64,000 bases of DNA from Escherichia coli (GTDB lineage Bacteria > Pseudomonadota > Gammaproteobacteria > Enterobacterales > Enterobacteriaceae), in NCBI RefSeq assembly GCF_013122565.1, contig NZ_CP053258.1. One strand, given 5' to 3'. This document shows, piece by piece, positions 11,264 through 26,486 of the stretch (position 1 is its first letter; each line of letters starts with the position of its first letter). The notes under the pieces are model-generated. The model had not been told where the DNA came from. It was given only the letters and a program-made list of their open reading frames with translations, and made no database searches. Both the position numbers and the translations under genes were made by a program.

Positions 11264-13030
11264 ATGAACACCACACTGACACCCGCAGATCTCGATCCCC
11301 GTCGGCAGGCCATGCTGCTGTACTTTCAGGGATACCGCGTAGCCCGCATTGCTGAAATGCTGGGCGAGAAAGTTGCAACCGTTCACAGCTGGAAAAAACG
11401 CGACAAGTGGGGTGACTATGGGCCGCTGGATCAGATGCAGCTCACCACCGCCGCACGCTACTGCCAGCTCATCATGAAGGAGCACAAAGAAGGGAAAGAT
11501 TTCAAAGAGATTGACCTGCTGGCGCGCCAGTCTGAGCGCCACGCGCGGATCGGCAAGTTTAACAATGGCGGCAACGAATCCGACTTAAACCCTAACGTCG
11601 CCAACCGCAACAAAGGCCCACGCCGTCAGCCGGAAAAGAATGTTTTCACCGATGAGCAGATTGAGAAGCTGGAAGAAATCTTCCATTCCTCCATGTTCAA
11701 CTACCAGCGCCACTGGTGGGAAGCCGGAAAAACCAACCGCATCCGCAACCTGCTGAAGTCACGCCAGATCGGCGCGACCTTTTACTTTGCCCGTGAAGCC
11801 CTGATTGACGCCCTGCTGACCGGACGTAACCAGATTTTCCTTTCCGCCAGCAAGGCACAGGCCCACGTCTTTAAGCAGTACATCATCGACTTCGCCAAAG
11901 AAGTGGAGGTGGAGTTGAAAGGCGATCCGATGGTGCTTCCTAACGGGGCCACGCTTTACTTCCTCGGCACCAATGCCCGCACGGCCCAGAGTTATCACGG
12001 CAACCTGTATCTGGATGAATATTTCTGGATACCGAAATTCCAGGAGCTGCGCAAAGTGGCTTCCGGTATGGCTATTCACAAGAAATGGCGACAAACCTAT
12101 TTTTCCACGCCATCCAGCCTGACACACAGTGCTTATCCGTTCTGGTCCGGTGCGCTATTCAACCGTGGGCGCAACAAAGCCGATAAGGTGGACATCGACC
12201 TGTCCCACAGCAATCTGGCCCCCGGCCTGCTGTGCGCAGACGGGCAATACCGCCAGATTGTCACCGTGGAAGATGCAGTGCGCGGCGGATGTAACCTGTT
12301 CGACCTCGATCAGTTACGCATGGAGTACAGCCCGGACGAATACCAGAACCTGCTGATGTGCGAGTTTGTGGACGATCTCGCGTCTGTGTTCCCACTCAGC
12401 GAGCTGCAGGCGTGCATGGTGGACAGCTGGGAAGTCTGGACCGACTTTCATGCACTGGCACTGCGCCCATTTGGCTGGCGCGAAGTGTGGATCGGTTATG
12501 ACCCGGCGAAAGGTACGCAGAACGGCGACAGTGCCGGATGCGTGGTGGTGGCACCGCCAGCCGTGCCGGGCGGCAAGTTCCGCATTCTTGAGCGTTACCA
12601 GTGGCGCGGGATGGACTTTCGCGCCCAGGCTGACGCCATCAAAAAACTGACCGAACAGTACAACGTGACCTATATCGGCATCGACTCAACCGGCGTTGGT
12701 CACGGGGTTTATGAGAACGTGAAAGCGTTCTTTCCTGCCGTCCGGGAGTTTGTCTACAACCCCAACGTTAAAAACGCCCTGGTACTCAAGGCCTACGACA
12801 TTATCAGCCACCGCCGTCTGGAGTTTGACGCCGGGCACACCGACATTGCGCAGTCATTCATGGCAATCCGTCGCGCCACCACCGCCAGTGGCAACCGCCC
12901 GACCTATGAAGCCAGCCGCAGCGAAGAAGCCAGCCACGCCGATCTGGCCTGGGCAACGATGCACGCACTGTTTAACGAACCGCTGCAGGGCGAATCCGCC
13001 AATACCAGCAATATTGTGGAGATTTTTTGA
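11264..13030 (+). CDS. Terminase large (ATPase) subunit (P2 gpP-like)
   Basis: 588 aa; divergent from O as in P2. Confidence 0.9.
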   Translation: MNTTLTPADLDPRRQAMLLYFQGYRVARIAEMLGEKVATVHSWKKRDKWGDYGPLDQMQLTTAARYCQLIMKEHKEGKDFKEIDLLARQSERHARIGKFNNGGNESDLNPNVANRNKGPRRQPEKNVFTDEQIEKLEEIFHSSMFNYQRHWWEAGKTNRIRNLLKSRQIGATFYFAREALIDALLTGRNQIFLSASKAQAHVFKQYIIDFAKEVEVELKGDPMVLPNGATLYFLGTNARTAQSYHGNLYLDEYFWIPKFQELRKVASGMAIHKKWRQTYFSTPSSLTHSAYPFWSGALFNRGRNKADKVDIDLSHSNLAPGLLCADGQYRQIVTVEDAVRGGCNLFDLDQLRMEYSPDEYQNLLMCEFVDDLASVFPLSELQACMVDSWEVWTDFHALALRPFGWREVWIGYDPAKGTQNGDSAGCVVVAPPAVPGGKFRILERYQWRGMDFRAQADAIKKLTEQYNVTYIGIDSTGVGHGVYENVKAFFPAVREFVYNPNVKNALVLKAYDIISHRRLEFDAGHTDIAQSFMAIRRATTASGNRPTYEASRSEEASHADLAWATMHALFNEPLQGESANTSNIVEIF

Positions 13031-14064
13031 TGGGAAAGAGTAAGAAGAACCGAGCTGCGGCGACGAAACAGATCCAGCTTAAAAGTCAAACTACAGCCGA
13101 AGCATTCAGCTTCGGCGATCCCGTTCCTGTTCTGGACCGCCGAGAATTACTGGACTATGTGGAATGCGTACAGATGGACCGTTGGTATGAGCCGCCCGTC
13201 AGCTTTGACGGACTGGCGCGCACCTTCCGCGCTGCAGTGCATCACAGTTCCCCGATTGCAGTAAAGTGCAACATTCTGACCAGTACCTACATCCCTCACC
13301 CGCTGCTCAGCCAGCAGGCTTTTTCACGTTTTGTGCAGGACTATCTGGTATTTGGTAACGCCTACCTGGAGAAACGCACGAACCGATTCGGTGAAGTTAT
13401 CGCCCTTGAGCCTGTGCTGGCAAAATACACCCGACGCGGGTTAGACCTGGATACCTACTGGTTTGTGCAATACGGCATGACTACACAGCCGTATCAGTTC
13501 ACGAAAGGCAGCATTTTTCACCTGATGGAACCGGATATCAACCAAGAGATCTACGGCCTGCCCGGTTATCTTTCTGCCATTCCGTCAGCCCTGCTCAACG
13601 AGTCCGCCACGCTGTTCCGCCGCAAGTATTACATTAACGGCAGCCACGCAGGCTTCATCATGTACATGACCGACGCCGCGCAGAACCAGGAGGATGTAAA
13701 CAACCTCCGTAACGCGATGAAAAGCGCCAAAGGACCAGGCAACTTCCGTAACCTGTTTATGTACTCGCCGAACGGCAAAAAGGACGGGCTTCAGATCATC
13801 CCATTGTCTGAAGTCGCGGCAAAGGATGAGTTTCTGAATATCAAAAATGTTAGTCGCGATGACATGATGGCGGCACACCGCGTGCCGCCGCAAATGATGG
13901 GGATTATGCCTAATAATGTTGGGGGGTTTGGGGATGTGGAGAAAGCGAGTATGGTATTTGTGAGGAATGAATTAATTCCTCTACAAAGGCGTTTAGAAGA
14001 GCTTAATTTGTGGCTAGAAGAGGAAGCCATAAAATTCAAACCATACAATTTATCAGATAATTAG
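13027..14064 (+). CDS. Portal protein (P2 gpQ-like)
   Basis: 345 aa; ATGA overlap with P. Confidence 0.9.
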   Translation: MMGKSKKNRAAATKQIQLKSQTTAEAFSFGDPVPVLDRRELLDYVECVQMDRWYEPPVSFDGLARTFRAAVHHSSPIAVKCNILTSTYIPHPLLSQQAFSRFVQDYLVFGNAYLEKRTNRFGEVIALEPVLAKYTRRGLDLDTYWFVQYGMTTQPYQFTKGSIFHLMEPDINQEIYGLPGYLSAIPSALLNESATLFRRKYYINGSHAGFIMYMTDAAQNQEDVNNLRNAMKSAKGPGNFRNLFMYSPNGKKDGLQIIPLSEVAAKDEFLNIKNVSRDDMMAAHRVPPQMMGIMPNNVGGFGDVEKASMVFVRNELIPLQRRLEELNLWLEEEAIKFKPYNLSDN

Positions 14065-14070
14065 AATCAT

Positions 14071-14108
14071 GGCCCTAGTATATTATCATTTTCACTAGGG
14101 CTTTCTTT
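14071..14108. terminator. Hairpin between convergent portal and RT genes (bidirectional terminator candidate)
   Basis: ggccctagt ... actaggg stem followed by ctttctttc. Confidence 0.4.
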
Positions 14109-15869
14109 CTATATGCTGCATATTTTTTTATAATGTTCAAAAACATCTTTAAAAGTGTTGAGTATTATTTCAAAACCACTAAAATCAACTTTTCGTTTTT
14201 TATCCCTAACTACTTTCACAGAGAAAACATGTTTCCCATATTCAGTTTTTGAGTCCCCATCGTTCTTTTTGTTAAATTTTTTACCACCAAGAATAGTTGA
14301 TAATACATCATGAGTAAAAAGATCTTCCATCGCAGTCTGCTCACCAGTAGCACTTAAAGGCGTTAGAATGATATAGAGATTTTTAAAGACATGGATAAAT
14401 CTCATTTTTCTCATTTTATTGGTATCATCGGGGCAGCTCTTAACATTATTTTTAAGGAAATTCAAAATCTCATTAGAACCAGAATCGTTGTCCAATACCA
14501 TGATAACCGGGTGCTTAGGAATGCTTCCATAGTAGCTTGAATATTCATCCATATATCTTTCGATGAATTTTTTAAGATCTGCGCTACCTCCAGACATATT
14601 AATAAAATAACTTGACTTCTCATCAGATTTAAAAATATTCAAGTTGATATCATTTCCTTTACCGTCTGTGCTTTTCTTGAGCAACTCAGGAAATTTGGCA
14701 GAAAGTGAACGAATAGCTGATTTTAAATATACTCGATCAGTTTTGCCTTCTGTCAAGATTGTCGGGGAAGCATGTCCATGAAAAAACTTGTAGTAAATAA
14801 ATTTACTATATGCCTTCTCTCGTACATTCAGCTTTAACCTGTAGTTTTTTAATGTAATATGAATAGGCGCATATTTTTCAGGCTGTTTACTTATTTTATC
14901 TTGTATGTTATTAAATTTATCAATCTGGTCAATAAACCCAAATCTTCCCTCTAGTTTTTCGATACTCCCCACGACTAGCTTACCATCTTCATCAGGTAGC
15001 TTATATTCTCCCTTACTATAAAGTGAATGAGCTAATGCTCTTGTTTTATTCGAATATTTCCTATCAACGTTAACAAATCTATTTATAGTAAGTCCCGTAA
15101 CTTCTTGTCTCGTGGATTTGTACGAGATCCTTGTTTTAGCATCATTAATATCAAAACCAGCACGTTTTATTTCACTGACAAGAATGCTCCCCAAGACAAC
15201 CCCCTCAGGAAGAGATATTGCCAAATCGGTAGGAAATTCTTTTTTATTAGTTGAAAACGTGATGTCATCGGCATAACGACTATATGAACAACCTAAACTC
15301 TTTGCTAATTTAGCTAATCTAATATCCATAATGCTACAAATTAAGTTTGTTATCACTGGAGAACACGGGCTACCCTGAGGCAAACTTCCCTTATAGCATG
15401 CGGCTTTAGCTAAAGTAGTGGCGACAATCGGATTTAATAAGAAATCCCTATTGGATAGGAAGTACCCTCTCACTCGCCCAAAATTAAAGCTTTTGAAAAA
15501 ATCCTTAAGATCAATATTGAGTATTATATTTTTCCCACGATGTCTGAAAGCATTGGAAATTATTGACTTATTTCTTTCAAAACCAAAGGAGTAATTGTTT
15601 TTAATTTTTTTAATTTTGAAAGTTTCATCTCTACACTCCATTAAAAGATCGGCTATTCGTCTTTGGAGATCTTTCAAACTATCTTCTGGCGCAGAAATCA
15701 ATCTGACTCCCTTACCTTTTTTTGGAATAGAGAAATCTTTATACTGATTATCAGTACCAATTCTGTAAAGAATATTCGTTAAAAACACCAACTTAACATC
15801 TAGCAATTTTGCCAAGTCAGCACGAGATGCTGCGACTTTCAAAAGTAGTAATTTAGAAGTTGCGACCAT
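14109..15869 (-). CDS. ret: Retron reverse transcriptase with C-terminal TOPRIM domain (RT-TOPRIM fusion; consistent with retron-Ec67 / Retron-Eco2 RT)
   Basis: 586 aa; RT motifs [23 protein letters not shown] (res 199-202); TOPRIM-like TEGKTD (373-378) and VLDNDSG (458-464); strongly AT-rich. Confidence 0.9.
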
Positions 15870-15904
15870 AATTATATTTTATCGTAGAAGTTAGTAAGAG
15901 AGGA

Positions 15905-16040
15905 AGAACGCATGTAGGCACTCCTTCGCACAGCACAACGGCCCTATAGCGACGAAACAAGGATGTCAGGGATGCGATTCCACCTGCCATTAAAATCACT
16001 GGTTGTGATACACAACCAACAAATCTGCCTACATGCGCAT
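15905..16040 (-). ncRNA. msr-msd: Retron msr-msd-like non-coding RNA locus flanked by a1/a2 inverted repeats
   Basis: 12-bp inverted repeat cgcatgtaggca at 15909-15920 and 16026-16037 with about 105 bp between them; internal hairpin ggttgtg-tat-cacaacc; a2 lies 40 nt upstream of the RT start. Confidence 0.5.
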
Positions 16041-16108
16041 AAATGAAACTACCATTTCAACGTCTTCATTTCCAGTAATATATTTCAAATATCTACACTG
16101 AGCGCGCG

Positions 16109-16127
16109 CTCGTATCCCCGCCACGCC
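16109..16127 (-). other. Candidate cos cohesive-end site
   Basis: Minus-strand GGCGTGGCGGGGATACGAG; first 13 nt match the 186/P2 cohesive end as I recall it (GGCGTGGCGGGGA...). Confidence 0.4.
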
Positions 16128-16171
16128 TGCCCGCTTTATGTAGTGGTTTTCATGCAGGTGCATGATCTACG

Positions 16172-16196
16172 CAAAAGCCCGCCAGTTCTGGCGGGC
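16172..16196 (-). terminator. Rho-independent terminator ending the A/tum early transcript
   Basis: Stem gcccgccag/tggcgggc with T-tract on the minus strand. Confidence 0.55.
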
Positions 16197-16469
16197 CTTA
16201 GCAAAAACGATCCTCAAACGATCATGCAATCTCATGCAGCATAGACATGCACAGACGAGTAAAGCGAATCGGACCTTACGCAAGGTGAACTCCTCAGCGG
16301 GCATAATCAGTATGTCGGAAGATCTCTAAAAATAAATAATTCGGTTAACAGGTATGCTTACAAAAGCATATATTTGATTAAAAATCATGTAAGGGGGAGG
16401 ATCTCAAACTGAATCGCCACGGGTTTTACAAATTTCGATAGTCTCTCTAACGTTTCGGCTGAGGTCAAA

Positions 16470-16895
16470 ATGAAAAGCTTTTACGTATTAATTTTAATTC
16501 TGGTTGCAAGCTTTGTTAGCGTCCCAGTTCAGGCGGTAACAGCTAAAAACTATGAGAAAGGAACTAAAGCTCAACAGAAATCAATATCTTACCTTTCATG
16601 TGCATTCTATGGCAGTAGCACACAATTAGATCCTAGCTACACGGAGCAAGTACCTACAGCCGATATCAAGATATTACAGAAAGCAGCTTACCACGCTTAC
16701 AACGATGCGCTCTCATACTTTGGCTATGAGGAACCAGATCACGAACAACGCATAATTGATTATGCTGAATTTGTGGCGTCGCAAGAAGCTGTGTTATGGG
16801 ATAAGCCGGGAATGAATGGAAAGCAGGTAACACTAATTGCTCGTTCTCTCTACAATGAGAGTAACTGTAACTTGTTACTGGACTCAATTAAGTAG
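16470..16895 (+). CDS. AT-rich cargo gene: small secreted protein of unknown function
   Basis: 141 aa; signal peptide MKSFYVLILILVASFVSVPVQA; GAGG RBS; low GC. Confidence 0.7.
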   Translation: MKSFYVLILILVASFVSVPVQAVTAKNYEKGTKAQQKSISYLSCAFYGSSTQLDPSYTEQVPTADIKILQKAAYHAYNDALSYFGYEEPDHEQRIIDYAEFVASQEAVLWDKPGMNGKQVTLIARSLYNESNCNLLLDSIK

Positions 16896-17054
16896 GAAAA
16901 AGATGGTATTTTGCCCGTAGTTTCAACCTTAATCTCCGAACCTGTCGCAGAACGGGCGTTCACTCATCAAATAAACGCCACACCTAACGCCTCACTGTAC
17001 TCGTTGTTCAACCTTGCTGACGCCAGAACCAAGTTCAGACGCCAGCAACTTTTC

Positions 17055-17288
17055 TTAATGCAGCCAGCTGTCGTCTTCCCACACCTTCTGCATAATCTTC
17101 ATCACTTGTTTTCTTTCTTCGTCCAGTTGCAGTCCGGTCAGTTCCACACCGTTAGAGCTACCTTTGCGGATGCGAATTACCGTTTTGGGATACAGGGGGC
17201 GCAGATTGCGGTAAAGCTCGGATTCAAGGGCGTCCAGGGTAGACTGGCTAATCTTCTGCTCTTTATCGATCATTATTTCAATGCGCAT
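17055..17288 (-). CDS. DinI-family protein (Tum antirepressor C-terminal-domain-like)
   Basis: Start trimmed to MRIEIMIDKEQ... (GAGGTG RBS); pattern MRIE...LDALESEL...WEDDSW resembles DinI. Confidence 0.7.
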   Translation of the reverse strand: MRIEIMIDKEQKISQSTLDALESELYRNLRPLYPKTVIRIRKGSSNGVELTGLQLDEERKQVMKIMQKVWEDDSWLH

Positions 17289-17298
17289 AAAGGTCACC

Positions 17299-17487
17299 TC
17301 AGCTGATGACATCCATTGAGCGGTTGTATTCGTGGGTTCTGATTTTTGCCATGAGTTCATCAGTCAATTCAGAAACCCACTGCAGAGCCAGCCCCTTCTC
17401 TTCATCACTACACTCACTAGCCGCTACAAGCTTAAGAAAAAAATCAATGCGCTGGAGCTTCAAAGACTCCAAAAAATAGTCCTGCAT
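17299..17487 (-). CDS. Small protein upstream of DinI-like ORF (possible N-terminal part of a Tum-like antirepressor)
   Basis: 62 aa; directly downstream of a LexA box; separated from the DinI ORF by a frame change. Confidence 0.5.
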   Translation of the reverse strand: MQDYFLESLKLQRIDFFLKLVAASECSDEEKGLALQWVSELTDELMAKIRTHEYNRSMDVIS

Positions 17488-17529
17488 CTTTCCTCCTATG
17501 ACACCAAAGCAATACTGTATATATAACCA

Positions 17530-17545
17530 CTGTTTATATTTACAG
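17530..17545. promoter_or_regulatory. LexA box (SOS operator)
   Basis: CTGTttatatttACAG fits CTGT-N8-ACAG with AT-rich spacer; a second half-site tactgtatatata lies just upstream. Confidence 0.6.
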
Positions 17546-17639
17546 TATATAATAATCTTACTGATGTAAAACGTTTTTTTACGTTCATCAGCCTGAAATG
17601 CCTGGTATTATTAAGAGCACGAATTGTTAACCCGCGTAA

Positions 17640-20054
17640 TTAATACAGGTTCCGCCACTTATCATCTTCCTGCAAACGCTGGTTCCGATAGAAGATACGC
17701 AGGCCTGCTCCTGACGGAATACTGCCGCCGCGAAGGAGTAAATCGACCTCTTTCTCGCTGCCATCAAATCCTCTGGACTTCAGTTCATAGACGAGCTGCT
17801 GTCGCTGATGGTCTGTAATTCGCTGTTTGTAGTCTTTACGCCGTTTCGGTTTCACCAGGCGTAACCTTGCAGCCAGTTCCCGGCGCTCTTTTTTGCTCAT
17901 ACTGTGCAGGTATTCGTGCAACTCCTTGTCATCCATGCGGGTAATGTCCGTTCTGGTATCCCCATCAGCTGATTTGTCTTTCCCTTGTTGGTTCAAATTT
18001 TCAGCAAGGGGACAGTTATTGCCACGAGTCCAAGGGGCGCAAGCGCCCTGGTCGGCTACCGCCTCCTGAACGTCAACGGCTTTACGAACCATTTTCCACT
18101 TCACTGCATGAGTGCAGATCTTGCCCTCTGCAATGGGTGACCAGATGCCATAAATACGAATGCCGTGATCGCCATAGGCGGTCGGCTCTTCGTTAATTTC
18201 ATAAGCAGTTCTGATGAGGTGATATTTGCGGGGAACCAGTACGCCGCCCTGCTTCATGATGTAAGTGGCAAAACAACCAGCATCAGCAGCAGCCAGGATT
18301 GCATCAAGGCGCGGGTTATCCAGTACCGGCGCACCTGCTTTTTTGTCCCCCTGTTGCCTTGCCGCCTGACCAGCCAACAATCGCAGTTCACGGTAAGCCT
18401 GACGCCCCGGAATGCCAAAGAAGCGGAATTGCTGAACACGATGCAAAGACGCCCAGGCATTCACGTATTCAGCGTTATCACGCAGAGATTTACCCGTTTC
18501 CTTGCTGATCTCGCCAGCCAGACCACGCCCGTCAATGTTCTTACTGATGTATTTCGCGATGTAGCTTGTTGGCGTACCTTTGCGCGGGTTTATCAGCTCA
18601 GACTTAAAGCGTGGTCCCGTGTTATTACCCAGCTCCTCGCGGTCTTCACGAATGGCAAACTTACGCAACAAAGCAGTAATGGCTCGGCGATCTTTTTTGC
18701 GCATAAAACACAACAGGTGCCAGTGCACTGTACCGTCATGATGCGGCTCAGCCACCCGCACGCCATACCAGCGCAATCCGGCTTTGTGCATCGCTTTACG
18801 AAATGCAGCAAACATGCCGACCAGATAATCACTGCTTTGTCTTACCGTCGCGTTTGTCCAGGTCGGGTTTGGTCTGCCGTTATTTAGCGTGGAATGGAAA
18901 CGTGACGGACAGGTGATGGTGTAGAAAACGGCGCAGTCACCGCGCATTTCCGCGATAAGCTCCAGACCTTTAACACAGGCCATCATCTCATTGCGGCGAT
19001 GCGCAGGGTTGCTGCTGCTGGCGTTTACCACGTCTTCCATATCCAGCGTGTCGCCGTCTTCGTTCACCAGTTCATGAGAACGAAAAAACTCCAGCGACTT
19101 ACGGCGCTGCTCACGTTTATGCATCACGGCTTCATAGCTGACATAGGGAGATGCTTTTTTGCTGACCAGGCAGACAGCGCGCAACTGCTCTTCCCGCCAT
19201 TCGCAACGCATCTTCCATAATTTCCGATACCACCAGTCGGCGCACAACATACGCGCCAGCGAACCCGGAATGAGTTCATAGGGCACGGGTTTACGGCGGT
19301 TTCTTTTCCGGCGGAGTTGCTCAAACGCAGGTGGGATGACATCCAGTCGCAGGGTTTCTGCTGCCACCCTTTCCCATGTCTTGCGGATTTCTTCTGGCTT
19401 AACGTCATCGGTGGCATACAAATCGCCACAAGCTGCATCAAGGCACATGCTCATATGCGCAGCTACCAGGGTGGACAGGCGTTTCACCTGATCCTGACTC
19501 ATTTCAGGCAGGATCAGCAGGCCGTCCAGCCCTTCCTGGCTCGCCATAAAGCGAAAAGCAGTGGATAGCTGACTGTCGCGTACATGCTCCAGCCGTTCCA
19601 GACATGGCTTAATCGTCTCACGCAAATAGCGGGAATAAGCCTTTGGCCTGCCCAGGCTGCTGAAGTATTCAATACGTTGCATCAGCGGCTTGCTGATATG
19701 GGAAGGCTGGGCGTTAACGTCCGCCAGAATGACCATGTCTGGATTAAAACGCTGCTGCTCATGCGCCAGCTTTGCCCGGCTAATGAGCTTATCCTGCTCT
19801 ATTTCGCGTTGGACAGGATCACGGGATTCATTAAAGAAATAACGCTCCCAGACCTGATCACTCAGAGCCTCGCGGCGCAGTTGTTCCTGCTCGTTATCGG
19901 CAGCGTACAGAGTGATCAGGTTTGAAAGCGCAGAAACCGGCGCAACTTCCGCCGGGTCCAGATAAGGGTTAATGGCCTTTTTCGGGCTGTTCCATGAGAA
20001 TGCTGCGGCGACCTCGTTAAAGCCGCTGCAGTTGTTCATATCATCATGGCTCAT
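17640..20054 (-). CDS. Replication initiation protein (P2 gpA-like rolling-circle nickase)
   Basis: 804 aa; position downstream of early genes; stop/start overlap with the methylase gene. Confidence 0.9.
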
Positions 20055-20908
20055 GCACGCACTCCGTACATGGCAGAACTATCCACGCCACGCGAAGGAT
20101 CAAATCCCACCCAGCAGCGCGCCCCGGAAACAGCAATGATTTCTGTTGCAGATTTACTCTCGCCAGCCGACACGCCGATGCTGCGTTTTGCCTTGATGTA
20201 GTGGTGAGTGAAATTGCGATACAGCGAACGAATCAGGGATGTGTCACTGTTAGAAACAATGACCGGATGTCCTTCAGATGCTCGATGTTCAAGAACGGAT
20301 GCCAGGTGATACTGGTCATCTTCAGTGAAACCATCAGTGTGATAGCCGGAAAACGTACCGTCATACGGCGGATCGCAATACACCACATCCCCCGCCTTCA
20401 ACATCGCCAGCGTTTCATCAAAGCTGGCGCAGATAAACGTTGCCCGCTGGGCTTTTTCTGCAAATGCGCGAATTTCTTTTTCAGGGAAATACGGATTTTT
20501 ATAATTACCGTAGGGAATGTTGAAATGCCCGCTCTTGTTATAGCGACATAAACCACGGTAACCGTGACGATTGAGATACAGGAAATATACCGCTTTCATG
20601 AAATCAGTAATTTCAGTGGAGTAATTAAACTCCTGCCTTATGTTGTAATAAGCCACCTCCCTGTTTGCGATCTCAAATAAAACTCTGGCGCGAGATATAA
20701 ACGATTCACAATCAGCGGCAACCTTTTTATAGAGGTTGATTAAATCAAGATTAATATCCGCAACCAGATAGCTTGGATAATCCGTCTCCATCATCACAGC
20801 ACAGGAACCCGCGAAAGGTTCAACCAGTCGCGGGCCAGCAGGAAGGTGTTTTTTCAGTTCGGACATAATTGCGGTTTTATTTCCCGCCCATTTCAGGATG
20901 GTGCTCAT
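20051..20908 (-). CDS. DNA adenine methyltransferase (Dam family, orphan)
   Basis: Start trimmed to [11 protein letters not shown]; motif I-like FAGSCAV and motif IV DPPY (VYCDPPYDG). Confidence 0.85.
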
Positions 20909-21132
20909 ACAGCACCTCCGTTGTAATGTTTGCCTTTCAGCTCTGCGATTTCCTGACAGGTAATGCAAAGCTGCACTCCCGGAATGGCGCGGCGTCGTGC
21001 TGGCGGAATTGGCGCTTCACATTCAATGCAAAGTACGCGTGACACGCCCGGTGATTTGGCACGGGCTGCACGGATATGGCGCTGGCGTTCTTCTTCAACG
21101 CGCTGCTGTACGAGATCCATTGCATCAGCCAT
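20905..21132 (-). CDS. DksA/TraR-family C4 zinc-finger protein
   Basis: 75 aa; CIECEAPIPPARRRAIPGVQLCITCQ (CxxC-N17-CxxC). Confidence 0.75.
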   Translation of the reverse strand: MADAMDLVQQRVEEERQRHIRAARAKSPGVSRVLCIECEAPIPPARRRAIPGVQLCITCQEIAELKGKHYNGGAV

Positions 21133-23054: not shown

Positions 23055-23651
23055 ATGTCAACATCAAAGTACCCAAGTGAGATCAAAATAAATCCCAATA
23101 AAGGTGGTAAGGCTGCGATTGAGCGATTAGTCGAAGCCTATGGCTTTACGACACGACAGGCTTTAGCTGATCACTTGGAAGTATCAAAAAGCACACTAGC
23201 GAACAGGTATTTGCGGGATACATTTCCTGCTGACTGGATAATCCAATGTGCTCTTGAAACAGGAACCTCCCTCAAATGGTTAACTACCGGACAAGGCCTT
23301 AAGCAAAGCTCGCTGACAGCAGCTACAGAAGAGCTTGTTAAGTTTCGCCTTGCCGCAGGCAAAATGATTGAAGACGGTTCATATGTCTTCGATTCATCAT
23401 TTCTTCCTGCAAACCTTTCATCACCAATTGTTATTCAGGATGGACTCGTCACATACATTTGTGATCAAAAATTTTCTGAAGTACTTGATGGAAACTGGTT
23501 AATCAATATCGACGGAACCTATTCCATTCGAAAAATCACAAGGCTTCCTAAAGGAATGATTAAAATTACAACAGCAGAGAATAGCTTTGAATGTGCATTT
23601 TCTGATATTGAAGTGGTTGCTTGTATAAGAAGTACAATAGTCTCGAATTAA
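23055..23651 (+). CDS. cI: CI-like immunity repressor (186 CI type)
   Basis: 198 aa; position between switch region and int; N-terminal HTH-like segment. Confidence 0.7.
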   Translation: MSTSKYPSEIKINPNKGGKAAIERLVEAYGFTTRQALADHLEVSKSTLANRYLRDTFPADWIIQCALETGTSLKWLTTGQGLKQSSLTAATEELVKFRLAAGKMIEDGSYVFDSSFLPANLSSPIVIQDGLVTYICDQKFSEVLDGNWLINIDGTYSIRKITRLPKGMIKITTAENSFECAFSDIEVVACIRSTIVSN

Positions 23652-23671: not shown

Positions 23672-25348
23672 ATGAATTCATTTGCCATCGTTATACTCTT
23701 ATTAGCATTTCTCGCCCCTGTTCTAGCTGTAATATTATTTAAACAAAGTAAAAAACACAAAGCGGCTATAGATAACCTGACAGCTAACAACATAGCCCTT
23801 TCTAACCAACTGATTGAAAATCAAGAAAAACTAGCACAGACCGTACGAGAATTATCAGATCTTGAAGGGCGAGCAGCACCATTGTGGCAATACGAAGAAT
23901 TGCACAGCGCAGTAATGGATGCAGAGAATAAGATAAAAAATGCGGACTCAATAGCCAAGCAAAAAATAGATGAAGCCCAAATTAAGGCGGCTAAAACAGT
24001 AAACGAAGCAAATTATCAAGCTCAGATAACAATAAGCAACGCTAATAGCGAAGCTATAGCAATCACCAAAGACGCTCGCGATGCACGCCTGAAAGCCAAA
24101 GAACGTCTTGATAATGCTAATAATAAAGCAAATGAGCTAATCTCAAATGCTAATGACAATGCAGTAAAAATTATTTCTGATGCAGAAGAAAGAGCAAAGG
24201 AGATTGCTGGTTCAGCATATGAAGCTAAAGAGTTTGCAGAAAAATATGAAGCAGTTGCAAAATCAATGAAAAATAAAATTGAAGGTTATGGTGATGAATG
24301 GATCATCCCTAACCGTAGTGTACTTGATGAGCTGGCAGAAAATTATGAATTTACAGATGCAGGCAAGGAATTACAAAAAGCCAGAGAGTTAACCAAATCA
24401 TTAATAAAAACTAATAAAGCTGCTTCGTGTGATTATGTTGAGCAAAACAGGCGTAATACTGCCATAAACTTTGTTTTGGATGCCTTCAATGGAAGAGTTG
24501 ACAGTATTTTATCAAAAGTCAAACACAACAATTTTGGAAAACTTTCCCAAGAAATAAAAGATGCATTTCAACTAGTAAATTACAATGGCTCTGCCTTTAG
24601 GTCCGCAAAAATAAGTGACATCTATCTTCAGGCAAGACTCAACGAGCTAAAATGGGGTGTAGCAGTTAATGAAATTATGCTCGAAGAAAAAGAAGAGCAA
24701 AGAAGGATTAAAGAACAGCTTCGTGAAGAGGAAAGAGCTCGTAGAGAATATGAAAAAGCGATAAAAGAAGCTGAAAAAGAAGAAAAAGCTATTCAGCAAG
24801 CTATAAATAAAGCAACGAAAGAACTTATGCTTGCAAATGAAGAACAACGCTTAGCTTTAGAGCAAAAAATAGCTGAACTACAGTTAAAATATGAAGAAGC
24901 TGAAGCTAAAAATCAACGAGCTATTTCTATGGCTCAACAAACCAGATCAGGCCACGTCTATATCATTAGTAATATTGGTTCATTTGGCGAAGATGTATAT
25001 AAAATTGGAATGACACGCCGCCTTGAACCACTTGATCGTGTTCGTGAACTCGGAGATGCTAGTGTTCCTTTTTCGTTCGATGTTCATGCGATGATTTATA
25101 GTGATGATGCACCATCATTAGAAAACCATCTGCATAAAGTTTTCAACGAAAAGCAGGTCAATAAAATTAACTCACGAAAAGAGTTTTTTAACGTAAATTT
25201 AAAAGAAATCAAATCAGTTATTGAAGACATGAACATCAACGCCCACTGGACAATGTTTGCAGAGGCGAAAGAATATAGAGAGTCTCTAGCTATTGAGCAG
25301 GAGCGCAAAGCAGCCACTTCCGCCAACGATGAACTACATGTTGCTTAG
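23672..25348 (+). CDS. AT-rich cargo gene: membrane-anchored coiled-coil protein with C-terminal T5orf172 (GIY-YIG-like) domain; DUF4041-type architecture; defense candidate
   Basis: 558 aa; N-terminal TM helix, long K/E/A-rich coiled coils, C-terminal GHVYIISNIGSFGEDVYKIGMTRRLEPLDRVRELGDASVPFSFDV; co-directional with cI and int. Confidence 0.85.
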   Translation: MNSFAIVILLLAFLAPVLAVILFKQSKKHKAAIDNLTANNIALSNQLIENQEKLAQTVRELSDLEGRAAPLWQYEELHSAVMDAENKIKNADSIAKQKIDEAQIKAAKTVNEANYQAQITISNANSEAIAITKDARDARLKAKERLDNANNKANELISNANDNAVKIISDAEERAKEIAGSAYEAKEFAEKYEAVAKSMKNKIEGYGDEWIIPNRSVLDELAENYEFTDAGKELQKARELTKSLIKTNKAASCDYVEQNRRNTAINFVLDAFNGRVDSILSKVKHNNFGKLSQEIKDAFQLVNYNGSAFRSAKISDIYLQARLNELKWGVAVNEIMLEEKEEQRRIKEQLREEERARREYEKAIKEAEKEEKAIQQAINKATKELMLANEEQRLALEQKIAELQLKYEEAEAKNQRAISMAQQTRSGHVYIISNIGSFGEDVYKIGMTRRLEPLDRVRELGDASVPFSFDVHAMIYSDDAPSLENHLHKVFNEKQVNKINSRKEFFNVNLKEIKSVIEDMNINAHWTMFAEAKEYRESLAIEQERKAATSANDELHVA

Positions 25349-25430: not shown

Positions 25431-26486
25431 ATGGCAGTACGAAAACTAACCACAGGGAAATGGCTTTGCGAATGTTACCCCGCCGGACGTAGCGGACGCC
25501 GTGTGCGTAAACAATTCGCCACCAAAGGCGAAGCACTGGCCTTCGAGCGATACACCATGGGGGAAATAGAAGCAAAGCCCTGGCTGGGCGAATCAGTGGA
25601 TCGTCGGACACTGAAAGATATGGTTGAGCTATGGTTCAAATTACATGGCAAATCTCTTACTGCCGGACAGCATGTCTACAACAAGCTGCTGTTGATGGTT
25701 GACGCCTTGGGAAATCCCCTTGCAACTGATCTCACCTCAAAAATGTTTGCTCACTATCGCGATAAACGCCTTACTGGTGAAATCTACTTCAGTGAAAAAT
25801 GGAAGAAAGGAGCAAGCCCAGTTACTGTTAACCTGGAGCAAAGCCATCTAAGCAGCGTTTTCAGAGAACTTTCCCGCCTGGGTGAATGGACACTTCCAAA
25901 CCCATTAGAGAAGATGCGCAAATTCACTATCGCAGAAAAGGAAATGGCATGGCTTACACATGAGCAGATTATCGAATTACTGTCTGACTGCAAACGTCAG
26001 AACCCAATTCTGGCACTGGTGGTAAAAATATGTCTAAGTACAGGCGCACGTTGGCGAGAAGCAATCAATCTTACCCGCTCACAGGTCACCAAGTACCGAA
26101 TCACCTTTGTGAGAACGAAGGGGAAGAAAAACAGAAGCATCCCTATCAGTAAAGAGCTTTATGAAGAGATCATGGCGCTCGATGGGTTCAATTTCTTCAC
26201 AGACTGCTATTTTCAATTTTTATCCGTGATGGAAAAAACGTCTATCGTTCTCCCTCGCGGTCAACTGACACACGTTCTGCGCCATACGTTTGCGGCGCAC
26301 TTCATGATGTCGGGTGGAAACATCTTGGCCTTACAAAAAATTCTCGGACACCACGATATAAAAATGACTATGCGTTATGCGCATCTGGCACCGGATCATT
26401 TGGAAACGGCGCTCCGTTTCAATCCACTGGCAACGTTACCAAATGGCGACAAAGTGGCGGCAGCGGTTGGCATTACCCCGCAATAA
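25431..26486 (+). CDS. int: Tyrosine site-specific integrase (P2/186-like)
   Basis: 351 aa; C-terminal catalytic region ...LRHTFAAHFMMSGGNILALQKILGHHDIKMTMRYAHL (R, H-x-x-R, Y). Confidence 0.9.
   Translation: MAVRKLTTGKWLCECYPAGRSGRRVRKQFATKGEALAFERYTMGEIEAKPWLGESVDRRTLKDMVELWFKLHGKSLTAGQHVYNKLLLMVDALGNPLATDLTSKMFAHYRDKRLTGEIYFSEKWKKGASPVTVNLEQSHLSSVFRELSRLGEWTLPNPLEKMRKFTIAEKEMAWLTHEQIIELLSDCKRQNPILALVVKICLSTGARWREAINLTRSQVTKYRITFVRTKGKKNRSIPISKELYEEIMALDGFNFFTDCYFQFLSVMEKTSIVLPRGQLTHVLRHTFAAHFMMSGGNILALQKILGHHDIKMTMRYAHLAPDHLETALRFNPLATLPNGDKVAAAVGITPQ

Follow-up and report, generated by a model that had tools for sequence, protein, structure and literature searches.

A diverged Ec67-family retron beside cos in a P2-like prophage of Escherichia coli

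Organization of the Locus

The window analyzed here is a 64-kb stretch of Escherichia coli DNA, and the features that concern us are collected in Table 1. A P2-like prophage is integrated beside rcdA, and the interval that separates its portal gene from cos is taken up by a cassette. This cassette consists of a gene for a reverse transcriptase (RT) fused to a TOPRIM domain and, directly upstream on the same strand, a gene for an msr-msd non-coding RNA (ncRNA). Nothing else is found in the slot (14065-16108) except ORFs of 50-58 aa that lie antisense within the RT gene. A separate effector gene is therefore absent, which gives the single-protein layout of type I-C1 retrons.

Table 1. Coordinates of the retron cassette and of the prophage features around it, in window numbering
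Feature	Coordinates	Strand	Basis or remarks
Portal gene (gpQ)	13027-14064		TIGR01540
Hairpin GCCCTAGT / ACTAGGGC, then TTTCTTTCT on + strand	14072..14101	+	Read from sequence
RT-TOPRIM fusion gene, retron type I-C1 (Ec67 family)	14109..15869	-	586 aa, ATG start
C-terminal TOPRIM nuclease domain, about residues 361-586	14112..14789	-	Homology to solved Eco2 TOPRIM
Reverse-transcriptase domain core (Pfam RVT_1, residues 48-262)	15084..15728	-	Pfam 8.2e-27
msr-msd non-coding RNA gene, 131 nt	15909..16039	-	Ungapped alignment to Ec67 ncRNA (positions 1-131 in Ec67 numbering)
a2 arm, terminal inverted repeat	15909..15920	-	12/12 complementary to a1; 39 nt upstream of RT ATG
msd, template for predicted 67-nt msDNA	15922..15988	-	Start and stop transferred from Eco2 via ungapped alignment
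msr stem-loop 1 (8-bp stem, 3-nt loop)	16000..16018	-	Arms 16000-16007/16011-16018
Guanosine predicted as the branching (priming) residue, counterpart of Eco2 G15	16025	-	Aligned to Ec67 G15; predicted 2'-5' branch
a1 arm, terminal inverted repeat	16026..16037	-	12/12 complementary to a2
Putative ncRNA promoter	16046..16074	-	-35 TGGAAA (16069-16074), 17-nt spacer, -10 TAGTTT (16046-16051)
cos cohesive-end sequence, P2-like prophage	16109..16127	-	GGCGTGGCGGGGATACGAG, then GCGCGCT; homologous to P2 cosL
gpA	17640-20054
Dam methylase	20054-20968		TIGR00571
Integrase	25431-26486		Host genes rcdA, ybjJ and ybjI come next

The initial annotation had described a retron cassette in an AT-rich island of a P2/186-like prophage, one with a Dam methylase and located near rcdA, and had placed the cassette between cos and the 3' end of Q. 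Each part of this description is borne out. The GC content is 0.31-0.37 across 14000-16000 as compared to about 0.55 in the adjoining phage genes, and the RT-TOPRIM ORF has 33.6% GC against 54% for the prophage backbone. The portal gene and cos bracket the cassette, the Dam methylase gene is recognized by its family model, and the integrase gene is followed by rcdA. The annotated cosL of phage P2 reads GGCGAGGCGGGGAAAGCAC, then tGCGCGCT. A hairpin downstream of the portal gene overlaps the RT stop codon; P2 has its annotated tQ terminator at the equivalent place, and we infer that the hairpin is likely the tQ-like terminator of the P-Q operon.

The content of the slot varies among related phages. 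Similarity of the backbone to one related prophage (L101) stops at 13961 and restarts at 16097, with other cargo in between; where related prophages share the flanks, the slot is occupied by a RES NAD+ phosphorylase or by a DUF4145 protein. Phage P2 has just 167 bp there. The cos-proximal gpA-cos-gpQ region has been described as a defence hotspot of P2 phages whose cargo includes retrons (Rousset et al. 2022, PMC9122126). The window has this arrangement, with gpA and gpQ on the flanks, cos adjoining, and variable cargo in related phages.

The RT-TOPRIM Protein

The 586-aa ORF matches the PADLOC model RT-Toprim_I-C over its full length (6.4e-213, 706 bits). It scores 685.9 bits against NCBIfam NF038237 (retron_Ec67_fus, 'retron Ec67 family'), for which the curated cut-off is 450, and it aligns without gaps, residues 1-583 on 1-583, to the solved chains of the 'Retron Ec67 protein' in PDB entries 9lm3 and 9i2f (E 4e-288). 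The PADLOC match, the NCBIfam cut-off, and the ungapped match to the solved Eco2 chains together show the family assignment.

The RT motifs that had been quoted for this ORF are all present in its translation, NIDLKDFF among them. The YADD motif occupies residues 199-202 (nt 15264-15275), and Y199, A200, D201, and D202 are invariant among 24 family members. The RT also carries N106-A107-x-x-H110 and V257-T258-G259, which correspond to the NAxxH and VTG motifs that are hallmarks of retron RTs; together with YADD, they are mostly invariant in the 24 relatives. In the C-terminal region, TEGKTD contains E374 (nt 14748-14750) and D378 (nt 14736-14738), and VLDNDSG contains D460 and D462 (D460-N-D462, nt 14484-14492). 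All 24 relatives, without exception, have E374, G375, D378, D460, D462, and E515. The assignment of this region as a TOPRIM domain relies on the Eco2 structures that have been solved and on the conservation of the EGxxD and DxD motifs. The HMM search that had been suggested for RVT_1 and Toprim was successful for the former (8.2e-27), whereas a Pfam scan of the 586-aa protein returned RVT_1 alone and no Toprim match. The earlier TOPRIM call thus agrees with the structures and motifs, but Pfam is silent on it. Type I-C1 is defined by an RT with a C-terminal TOPRIM that has EGxxD as motif IV and DxD as motif V (Mestre et al. 2020, PMC7736814); here, these motifs read E374-G-K-T-D378 and D460-N-D462.

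The identical protein sequence occurs on 119 public contigs from several Enterobacteriaceae, under the correct family name. Compared with Ec67, dN is 0.22 and the synonymous sites are saturated, so dN/dS is not computable for this pair; a 90%-identical Raoultella allele was therefore used. The resulting dN/dS of 0.06 indicates that the RT-TOPRIM gene is under purifying selection. No paper turned up in a literature search by identifiers of the 90%-identity cluster, namely four RefSeq (WP_) accessions and one from UniParc. No Shine-Dalgarno sequence was seen before the RT-TOPRIM ATG, and Ec67 too is without a strong one.

The msr-msd RNA

A perfect 12-bp inverted repeat enclosing an internal hairpin had been noted upstream of the RT gene and interpreted as the a1/a2 layout of an msr-msd. 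These observations hold: the two arms are complementary at 12 of 12 positions and 105 nt apart, the hairpin has a stem of 8 bp, and the region aligns without gaps to the Ec67 ncRNA. The fold of the msr-msd RNA has a z value of -3.96. In the 64-kb window, a1/a2 is the sole perfect 12-mer inverted repeat with a spacing of 60-200 nt. The repeat by itself is not significant window-wide because shuffling the sequence in blocks yields about 0.7 pairs of this kind per 64 kb; a 12-bp repeat less than 40 nt from the RT start is expected by chance about 0.002 times. What really proves the repeat is its covariation in homologous loci.

An Rfam scan of 13500-17700 with E up to 1 gave no match and no curated retron msr family, which reflects the coverage of Rfam and not a lack of ncRNA. 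Because Rfam gave no match, we built our own covariance model from 8 close ncRNAs. On the 64-kb window, this model scores the locus at 165 bits, the sole match above 13 bits; the alignment and covariance-model check proposed for the 15905-16040 region thus gave a clear result by both routes. A scan of genome contigs supplied relatives, mostly of 34-47% protein identity with one of 51%, on which the RNA model could be tested independently. A full-length match lies directly upstream of the RT in 59 of the 59 distant RT-TOPRIM loci with upstream DNA. These distant relatives were unhelpful for close comparison.

In 63 RT-TOPRIM loci, covariation supports two helices, that of a1/a2 and that of the first msr hairpin. 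The a1/a2 stem is 95.6% paired, with changes on both sides in 12 of 13 pairs, so that the inverted repeats, as had been anticipated, are conserved in homologous loci. Stem-loop 1 is 96.5% paired, with both-side changes in 6 of 8 pairs. Across the 63 loci, 92.6% of cells are paired, as compared to 68% in shuffled alignments and 34-45% when the partners are slid, and 449 cells are changed on both sides versus 134 in the shuffles. The G directly 3' of a1 is invariant in 63/63 loci and lies within an invariant A-G-A; its counterpart in Eco2 is the branching guanosine numbered G15 (PMC12916289). The predicted RNA structure behind the priming step is thereby shown by covariation.

The msDNA of Eco2 is primed at G15 and ends opposite G52 (PMC12916289). 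Transferred to the window, these boundaries predict an msDNA that starts opposite RNA position 118 and corresponds to the + strand of 15922-15988, TCCTTCGCACAGCACAACGGCCCTATAGCGACGAAACAAGGATGTCAGGGATGCGATTCCACCTGCC, for which we infer a length of 67 nt from the Eco2 alignment. A consensus promoter scan between cos and a1 reported nothing. The putative promoter in Table 1 has a -10 element that ends 7 nt ahead of RNA position 1, and Ec67 has, at the aligned place, the identical -35 hexamer TGGAAA, 17 nt, and then TATGTT.

Comparison with Retron-Eco2

Retron-Eco2 (Ec67; PDB 9I2F, 9I2G, 9S1F, 9LM3) is also a single RT-TOPRIM polypeptide of 586 aa that aligns without gaps to the window protein, and it likewise lies between portal and cos in a P2-like prophage that has a Dam methylase gene. 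The window allele keeps every catalytic residue of the Eco2 RT and TOPRIM, and the two ncRNAs are alike in length and layout, with a1 followed by the branch G15, stem-loop 1, the stop site at U51/G52, and a2. The initial annotation had matched the locus to retron-Ec67 and had considered it probably a known retron rather than a new one, proposing a comparison with the Ec67 RT. That comparison gives 70% identity, and the match is correct for the family, where the retron is indeed known, but not for the element itself. The ORF DNA is 69% identical to Ec67, and the predicted msDNA agrees with that of Ec67 at 56 of 67 positions. By these measures, the window retron is a distinct, diverged Ec67-family allele of the studied protein.

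Conservation is much higher in the ncRNA, at about 87% identity and without gaps, than in the ORF. The 11 msDNA differences are concentrated in nucleotides 17-52, overlapping the three-way-junction nucleotides (29-50), and the central msDNA region folds in a different register from that of Ec67. Four cytosines have been mapped as DenB cut sites in Eco2 msDNA (PMC12916289); dC15 and dC37 are kept here, whereas dC17 and dC31 are each replaced by A (2/4 lost). In the protein, the trimer-contact loop (residues 325-347) is 43% identical to Eco2 and the last 26 residues are 38% identical. The window has alanine in place of S513, a reported metal-B ligand of Eco2; this change is probably tolerated, as 9 of 24 relatives share it. 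The U-G wobble in the a1/a2 stem of Ec67 is a U-A pair in the window, and two mismatches weaken the counterpart of the second pre-RT hairpin of Ec67 (GGAGG/CCUCC). Given the changes in the central msDNA region, the assembly state and the trigger range may differ from those of Eco2. Mapping of the 'catalytic K562' of PMC12405507 places a D at position 562 in both the Ec67 sequence (L002) and the window.

Interpretation of the Locus

In our view, with a probability of about 90%, this locus holds a retron of type I-C1 that belongs to the Ec67 / Retron-Eco2 family, is complete and functional, and serves as anti-phage cargo of the P2-like prophage. A reading close to this one is that the retron is of the Eco2 type and has a sensing specificity other than that of Eco2, responding to different phage nucleases or assembling differently. 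The 11 msDNA substitutions, which include the loss of DenB sites dC17 and dC31, are consistent with such a change, as is the divergence of the trimer-contact loop relative to the 70% identity overall. However, DenB acts as a general endonuclease with specificity for dC, and many cytosines remain in the msDNA. Moreover, DNase I also activates Eco2 (PMC12916289), so any msDNA damage may suffice. An altered specificity is therefore possible but, in our estimation, rather unlikely. Slightly more doubtful is the particular form in which the msDNA sensor and the single protein-protein contact within the trimer diverged jointly, yielding a natural Eco2 specificity variant. If this is true, the two alleles would detect partly different phage nucleases and form no mixed complexes, and the cos-proximal retron alleles would constitute a diversifying sensor series.

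The replacement of S513, the weakened second msr hairpin, and the missing Shine-Dalgarno and consensus promoter sequences could instead indicate a decaying or inactive remnant carried as a passive passenger of the prophage. Against this reading stand the full-length ORF, its invariant catalytic residues, the low dN/dS against the nearest allele, the spread of the identical protein over several Enterobacteriaceae, and an ncRNA in which the a1/a2 stem is still perfect and both the branch G and stem-loop 1 are retained; Ec67 itself has no strong Shine-Dalgarno sequence either. A degenerate remnant is rejected on these grounds as highly improbable.

Two further readings have a negligible probability. 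Equal length, architecture, slot, prophage type, and ungapped alignment would fit retron-Ec67 itself, but sequence comparison refutes this identity: the protein, ORF DNA, and msDNA all differ to the extent given above, the synonymous sites are saturated, and an Ec67-family cassette occupies the same slot in 13 of 5,426 complete E. coli genomes, each only about 73% identical to the window. Another kind of RT element (a DRT/Abi defence RT, a group II intron, or a retron of either type XI (protease) or type XII (TIR)) is suggested by weaker matches to RT-TIR_XII, RT-Protease_XI, group II intron RT, and Drt2, but it is refuted by the domain and cut-off results. All of these matches score less than half of the I-C match (at most 321 versus 706 bits), and the NCBIfam scores lie below the curated cut-offs (TIR 264 vs 600, group II 47 vs 300, Drt2 37 vs 390). 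The protease, group II intron, and Drt2 matches are confined to the RT half, the two RT-TIR_XII matches, at residues 11-431 and 13-484, stop partway through the C-terminal region, and the C-terminal half has TOPRIM motifs instead.

Proposed Mechanism and Significance

For the functional Ec67-family retron that we favor, a mechanism can be proposed in some detail. That of Eco2 has been established experimentally (PMC12916289; PMC12405507), with the mechanism of the RT-TOPRIM fusion solved in 2025-2026, and it is transferred to the window allele by homology because the two proteins are 70% identical. A promoter between cos and a1 would drive the msr-msd RNA and the downstream RT-TOPRIM gene on the same strand. 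The a1/a2 stem would present G16025, from whose 2'-OH the RT would prime, copying the msd into an msDNA that is branched and about 67 nt long. As in Eco2, a trimer of RT-TOPRIM subunits with three msDNAs would then assemble, in which msDNA covers the TOPRIM active sites. A nuclease of the infecting phage, such as T-even DenB or T5 A1, would cut the msDNA, and its decay would uncage the TOPRIM RNase. The freed RNase, as expected from the Eco2 experiments, would nick tRNA acceptor stems and other RNAs, so that translation stops and phage growth is aborted. The presumed beneficiaries are the lysogen and its prophage.

An intact Ec67-family retron at this position is real but ordinary, and its family is already known. 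The discovery value is small because the family, structure, trigger, tRNA-cleaving mechanism, and P2 hotspot home have all been published. The two points that the initial annotation had held to remain interesting, the placement between cos and Q and the fusion of RT to TOPRIM, do not survive as novelties, since the former appears in PMC9122126 and the latter in PMC12405507 and PMC12916289. The exact protein is already correctly named in public records. The practical value of the locus is that it offers a natural variant of Eco2 in which the msDNA core and the trimer loop are different; comparison with Eco2 could tell which msDNA and protein features set the trigger range and the assembly. In addition, one ncRNA family goes with RT-TOPRIM genes from Enterobacteria to Firmicutes and is so far absent from Rfam.

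Other type I-C RT-TOPRIM retrons, found in Proteobacteria and Firmicutes, have the fusion and the upstream ncRNA family in common with the window, but their proteins are only 34-51% identical to it and they occur in varied contexts rather than in P2 prophages. The TOPRIM nucleases of the OLD family, Gabija (GajA), and PARIS (AriB) are regulated by a sensor ATPase. In contrast, the TOPRIM of the window is without an ATPase partner, is fused to the RT, and would be regulated by msDNA. The slot and its flanking genes are those of the other P2-like hotspot cargo, which comprises old, tin, retrons, restriction enzymes, and others. The side of cos differs, however: old and tin lie on the gpA side in the P2 map, whereas the cassette in the window lies on the Q side.

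Family assignment and divergence of the RT-TOPRIM protein

The RT and TOPRIM motifs quoted in the initial annotation are present in the translation of the 586-aa ORF, which sits in a region of 31-37% GC between phage genes whose GC content is about 55%. PADLOC matches the full length of the protein to RT-Toprim_I-C (6.4e-213), and NCBIfam assigns it to NF038237, 'retron Ec67 family RNA-directed DNA polymerase/endonuclease', with 686 bits where the cut-off is 450. Among solved structures, the top matches (E 4e-288) are chains 9LM3, 9I2F, 9I2G and 9S1F of Retron Ec67 (Eco2), which align with the window protein without gaps (1-583 to 1-583). Three curated libraries agree on a single family. Other RT families fall below their NCBIfam cut-offs: group II intron RT scores 47 against 300, Drt2 37 against 390, and TIR-RT 264 against 600.

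An HMM search for RVT_1 and Toprim had been suggested. Pfam places RVT_1 at residues 48-262, but none of its Toprim models matched the protein; the TOPRIM assignment is therefore based on the Eco2 structures and the EGxxD/DxD signature. The Eco2 C-terminal domain has a Toprim fold resembling the OLD, Gabija and PARIS nucleases (PMC12405507). The type I-C1 signature, EGxxD plus DxD (PMC7736814), occurs in the window protein as E374-G-K-T-D378 and D460-N-D462. These motifs, YADD at 199-202 and E515 are invariant in 24 family members (47-99% identity). Residue 513 is naturally alanine in the window allele and in 9 of 24 relatives; in the Eco2 TOPRIM, S513 is reported to be a metal-B ligand, and its substitution by alanine abolished defence (PMC12405507). 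The same study names a 'catalytic K562'. Position 562 is D in the Ec67 sequence read here, so the published numbering may be offset.

The proposal that the cassette is probably retron-Ec67 holds for the family. Identity with Ec67 itself is ruled out, as 410 of 586 residues (70%) match the canonical protein, taken from two E. coli genomes (L001 and L002). The RT part is 75% identical and the TOPRIM part 65%; for the trimer-contact loop (residues 325-347) the figure is 43%, and for the final 26 residues 38%. DNA identity between the ORFs is 69%, with a dN of 0.22 and saturated synonymous sites, and dN/dS against a 90%-identical Raoultella allele is 0.06. The low dN/dS and the divergence from Ec67 indicate that the gene is old, diverged and under purifying selection; it is intact, with all catalytic residues.

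Ec67-family cassettes covering the query occur in 13 of 5,426 complete E. coli genomes, each only about 73% identical to the window. The exact window protein, named 'MULTISPECIES: retron Ec67 family...', is found on 119 public contigs from E. coli, Shigella, Citrobacter and Enterobacter, and on one IMG/VR viral contig. A literature search by accessions from its 90%-identity cluster returned no paper mentioning them, so the window allele appears to be without experimental study. The locus is nothing new in kind: its family, mechanism, genomic niche and exact protein annotation are all public. The initial annotation is sound in observation and interpretation, the sole correction being that this is a diverged Ec67-family allele and not Ec67.

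Coordinates of the retron and its prophage neighbourhood in the window
Feature	Position	Strand	Remarks
Portal gene gpQ	13027-14064		TIGR01540; left of RT-TOPRIM ORF
Terminator-like hairpin	14072-14110	+	GCCCTAGT / ACTAGGGC, 14-nt loop, then TTTCTTTCT
RT-TOPRIM ORF	14109-15869	minus	586 aa, ATG start
Residue 513 codon	14333-14335		
Trimer loop, residues 325-347	14829-14897		
Leader, a2 to RT start codon	15870-15908	minus	39 nt
Inverted repeat (a2, a1)	15909-15920 and 16026-16037	minus	perfect, 12 bp; encloses 105 nt
msd template	15922-15988	minus	Eco2 numbering via gap-free alignment
Stem-loop 1	16000-16018	minus	8-bp hairpin inside repeat
Branching G (predicted)	16025	minus	Eco2 numbering via gap-free alignment
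cos	16109-16127		GGCGTGGCGGGGATACGAG then GCGCGCT; homologous to annotated cosL of P2
141-aa ORF	16470-16895	+	gpA side of cos
gpA, replication gene	17640-20054		
Dam methylase	20054-20968		
Upstream of 558-aa protein gene	23055-23651	+	
558-aa protein	23672-25348	+	PD-Lambda-1
Prophage integrase	25431-26486		abuts host genes rcdA, ybjJ, ybjI

A covarying ncRNA upstream of the RT gene

The 12-bp inverted repeat with an internal hairpin that the initial annotation described was recovered 39 nt upstream of the RT ATG, on the same strand. No other perfect 12-mer inverted repeat with a spacing of 60-200 nt occurs anywhere in the 64-kb window. Because shuffled sequence yields about 0.7 pairs of this kind per 64 kb, what makes the repeat persuasive is its position and its behaviour in relatives, not its length. 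Between cos and the RT start, the alignment with Ec67 is free of gaps. Eco2 numbering, in which priming occurs at G15 and synthesis ends opposite G52 (PMC12916289), was transferred with RNA position 1 at 16039. Identity to Ec67 is about 87% for the ncRNA but 69%, with saturated silent sites, for the adjoining ORF; this difference argues for constraint on the RNA itself. The 137-nt segment folds more stably than 200 of 200 shuffles (z = -3.96). Between a2 and the RT start codon, the leader is rich in A and U and lacks a Shine-Dalgarno sequence; binding of ribosomal protein S1 to the ncRNA precursor, reported in the Eco2 study, could bear on translation start from such a leader.

Covariation was examined first in 8 distinct ncRNAs from loci with RTs 53-100% identical. 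In the a1/a2 stem and stem-loop 1, 99.4% of cells are paired, and 6 pairs show changes in both partners, compared with 0.7 in shuffles and 0-1 with slid partners. The suggested covariance-model check was made by building a model from these ncRNAs and running it on 63 distant RT-TOPRIM loci, which range from Proteobacteria to Firmicutes and have 34-51% protein identity. A full-length match, on the RT strand and ending just before the RT gene, was obtained in each of the 59 loci that have upstream DNA; the 4 loci without a match each have <80 nt upstream. The window gave one match (15901-16042, minus), and loci with other cargo gave none. In a 63-sequence alignment, which was fitted to the model and thus favours structure but is guarded by slid controls and the independent 8-sequence result, 92.6% of cells are paired, versus 68% when shuffled and 34-45% with slid partners. 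Both-side changes number 449 cells versus 134 in shuffles and affect 12 of 13 a1/a2 pairs and 6 of 8 stem-loop-1 pairs. In all 63 sequences the branch G and the A-G-A it forms with its neighbours are unchanged, as is GAGU before a2. Rfam 15 contains no model matching type I-C retron ncRNA.

Differences from Ec67 and proposed mechanism

Two U-G pairs of Ec67, one in a1/a2 and one in stem-loop 1, are U-A pairs in the window allele. Two mismatches interrupt the second hairpin of its primary transcript, which in Ec67 is GGAGG/CCUCC. The predicted 67-nt msDNA, with length and ends taken from the gap-free alignment, differs from that of Ec67 at 11 positions (17, 19, 23, 30-32, 36, 44, 46, 52 and 61). 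Most of these changes affect the segment that wraps around the RT fingers and builds the three-way junction of the Eco2 trimer centre. DenB cuts Eco2 msDNA before cytosines 15, 17, 31 and 37 (PMC12916289); two of the four are kept in the window allele and two are A. In the Eco2 trimer, loop 325-347 provides the sole protein-protein contact (PMC12916289), and the identity of this loop to Ec67 lies well below the overall value. The msDNA core where the substitutions cluster is adjacent to this loop. A trigger range or assembly noticeably different from Eco2 seems rather unlikely.

By analogy with Eco2, we consider it highly probable (about 0.9) that the window locus is a working Eco2-type retron. 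Following the Eco2 experiments, the RT would prime on the 2'-OH of the branch G to yield branched msDNA, and three protein-msDNA units would form a trimer with the TOPRIM sites covered by msDNA. Phage DNA endonucleases, DenB of T-even phages or A1 of T5-like phages, would nick the msDNA, and its decay would expose and rearrange the TOPRIM site. The enzyme would then nick tRNA acceptor stems and other RNAs, halting translation and aborting infection.

Prophage context and second defence cargo

The placement between cos and Q is borne out, as is a prophage with a Dam methylase near rcdA. A terminase gene precedes gpQ, and past cos the order is the 141-aa ORF, a DinI-like gene, gpA and the Dam methylase. 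In P2, 167 bp separate cos from Q. In one E. coli prophage, whose flanks are 95-99% identical, the slot is occupied by a RES-family NAD+ phosphorylase; similarity of this prophage to the window stops at 13961 and restarts at 16097. Phage Cartapus has a DUF4145 protein there. The cos-proximal gpA-gpQ interval is a defence hotspot of P2-like phages, retrons included (PMC9122126; bioRxiv 2026.02.27.708500), and this defence-cargo slot is where the retron is located.

The plus-strand hairpin beside gpQ has the look of a terminator for the terminase-portal operon, like tQ in P2. Its T-run and the RT stop codon overlap. The 141-aa ORF has a signal-peptide-like N-terminus and no NCBIfam or PADLOC match; L101, a related prophage with other cargo, has the same 426-nt ORF under a hypothetical-protein annotation (WP_000834899.1).

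The 558-aa protein, encoded in an AT-rich patch adjoining the integrase, matches the PADLOC defence family PD-Lambda-1 (3e-120) and is named 'SNIPE associated domain-containing protein' in RefSeq. Defence cargo is therefore present at two sites of the prophage, the second being a different known P2 hotspot. Close retron alleles also occur outside P2 prophages, in L088 (Raoultella, 90%), L093 (Arsenophonus, 65%) and L099/L100 (53%). Some adjoin DUF927/Toprim_3 primase and Ogr_Delta genes, a P4-like satellite setting, and others adjoin HEPN_LA2681 and DUF4917 genes, suggesting that phage, satellite and island hotspots exchange the cassette.
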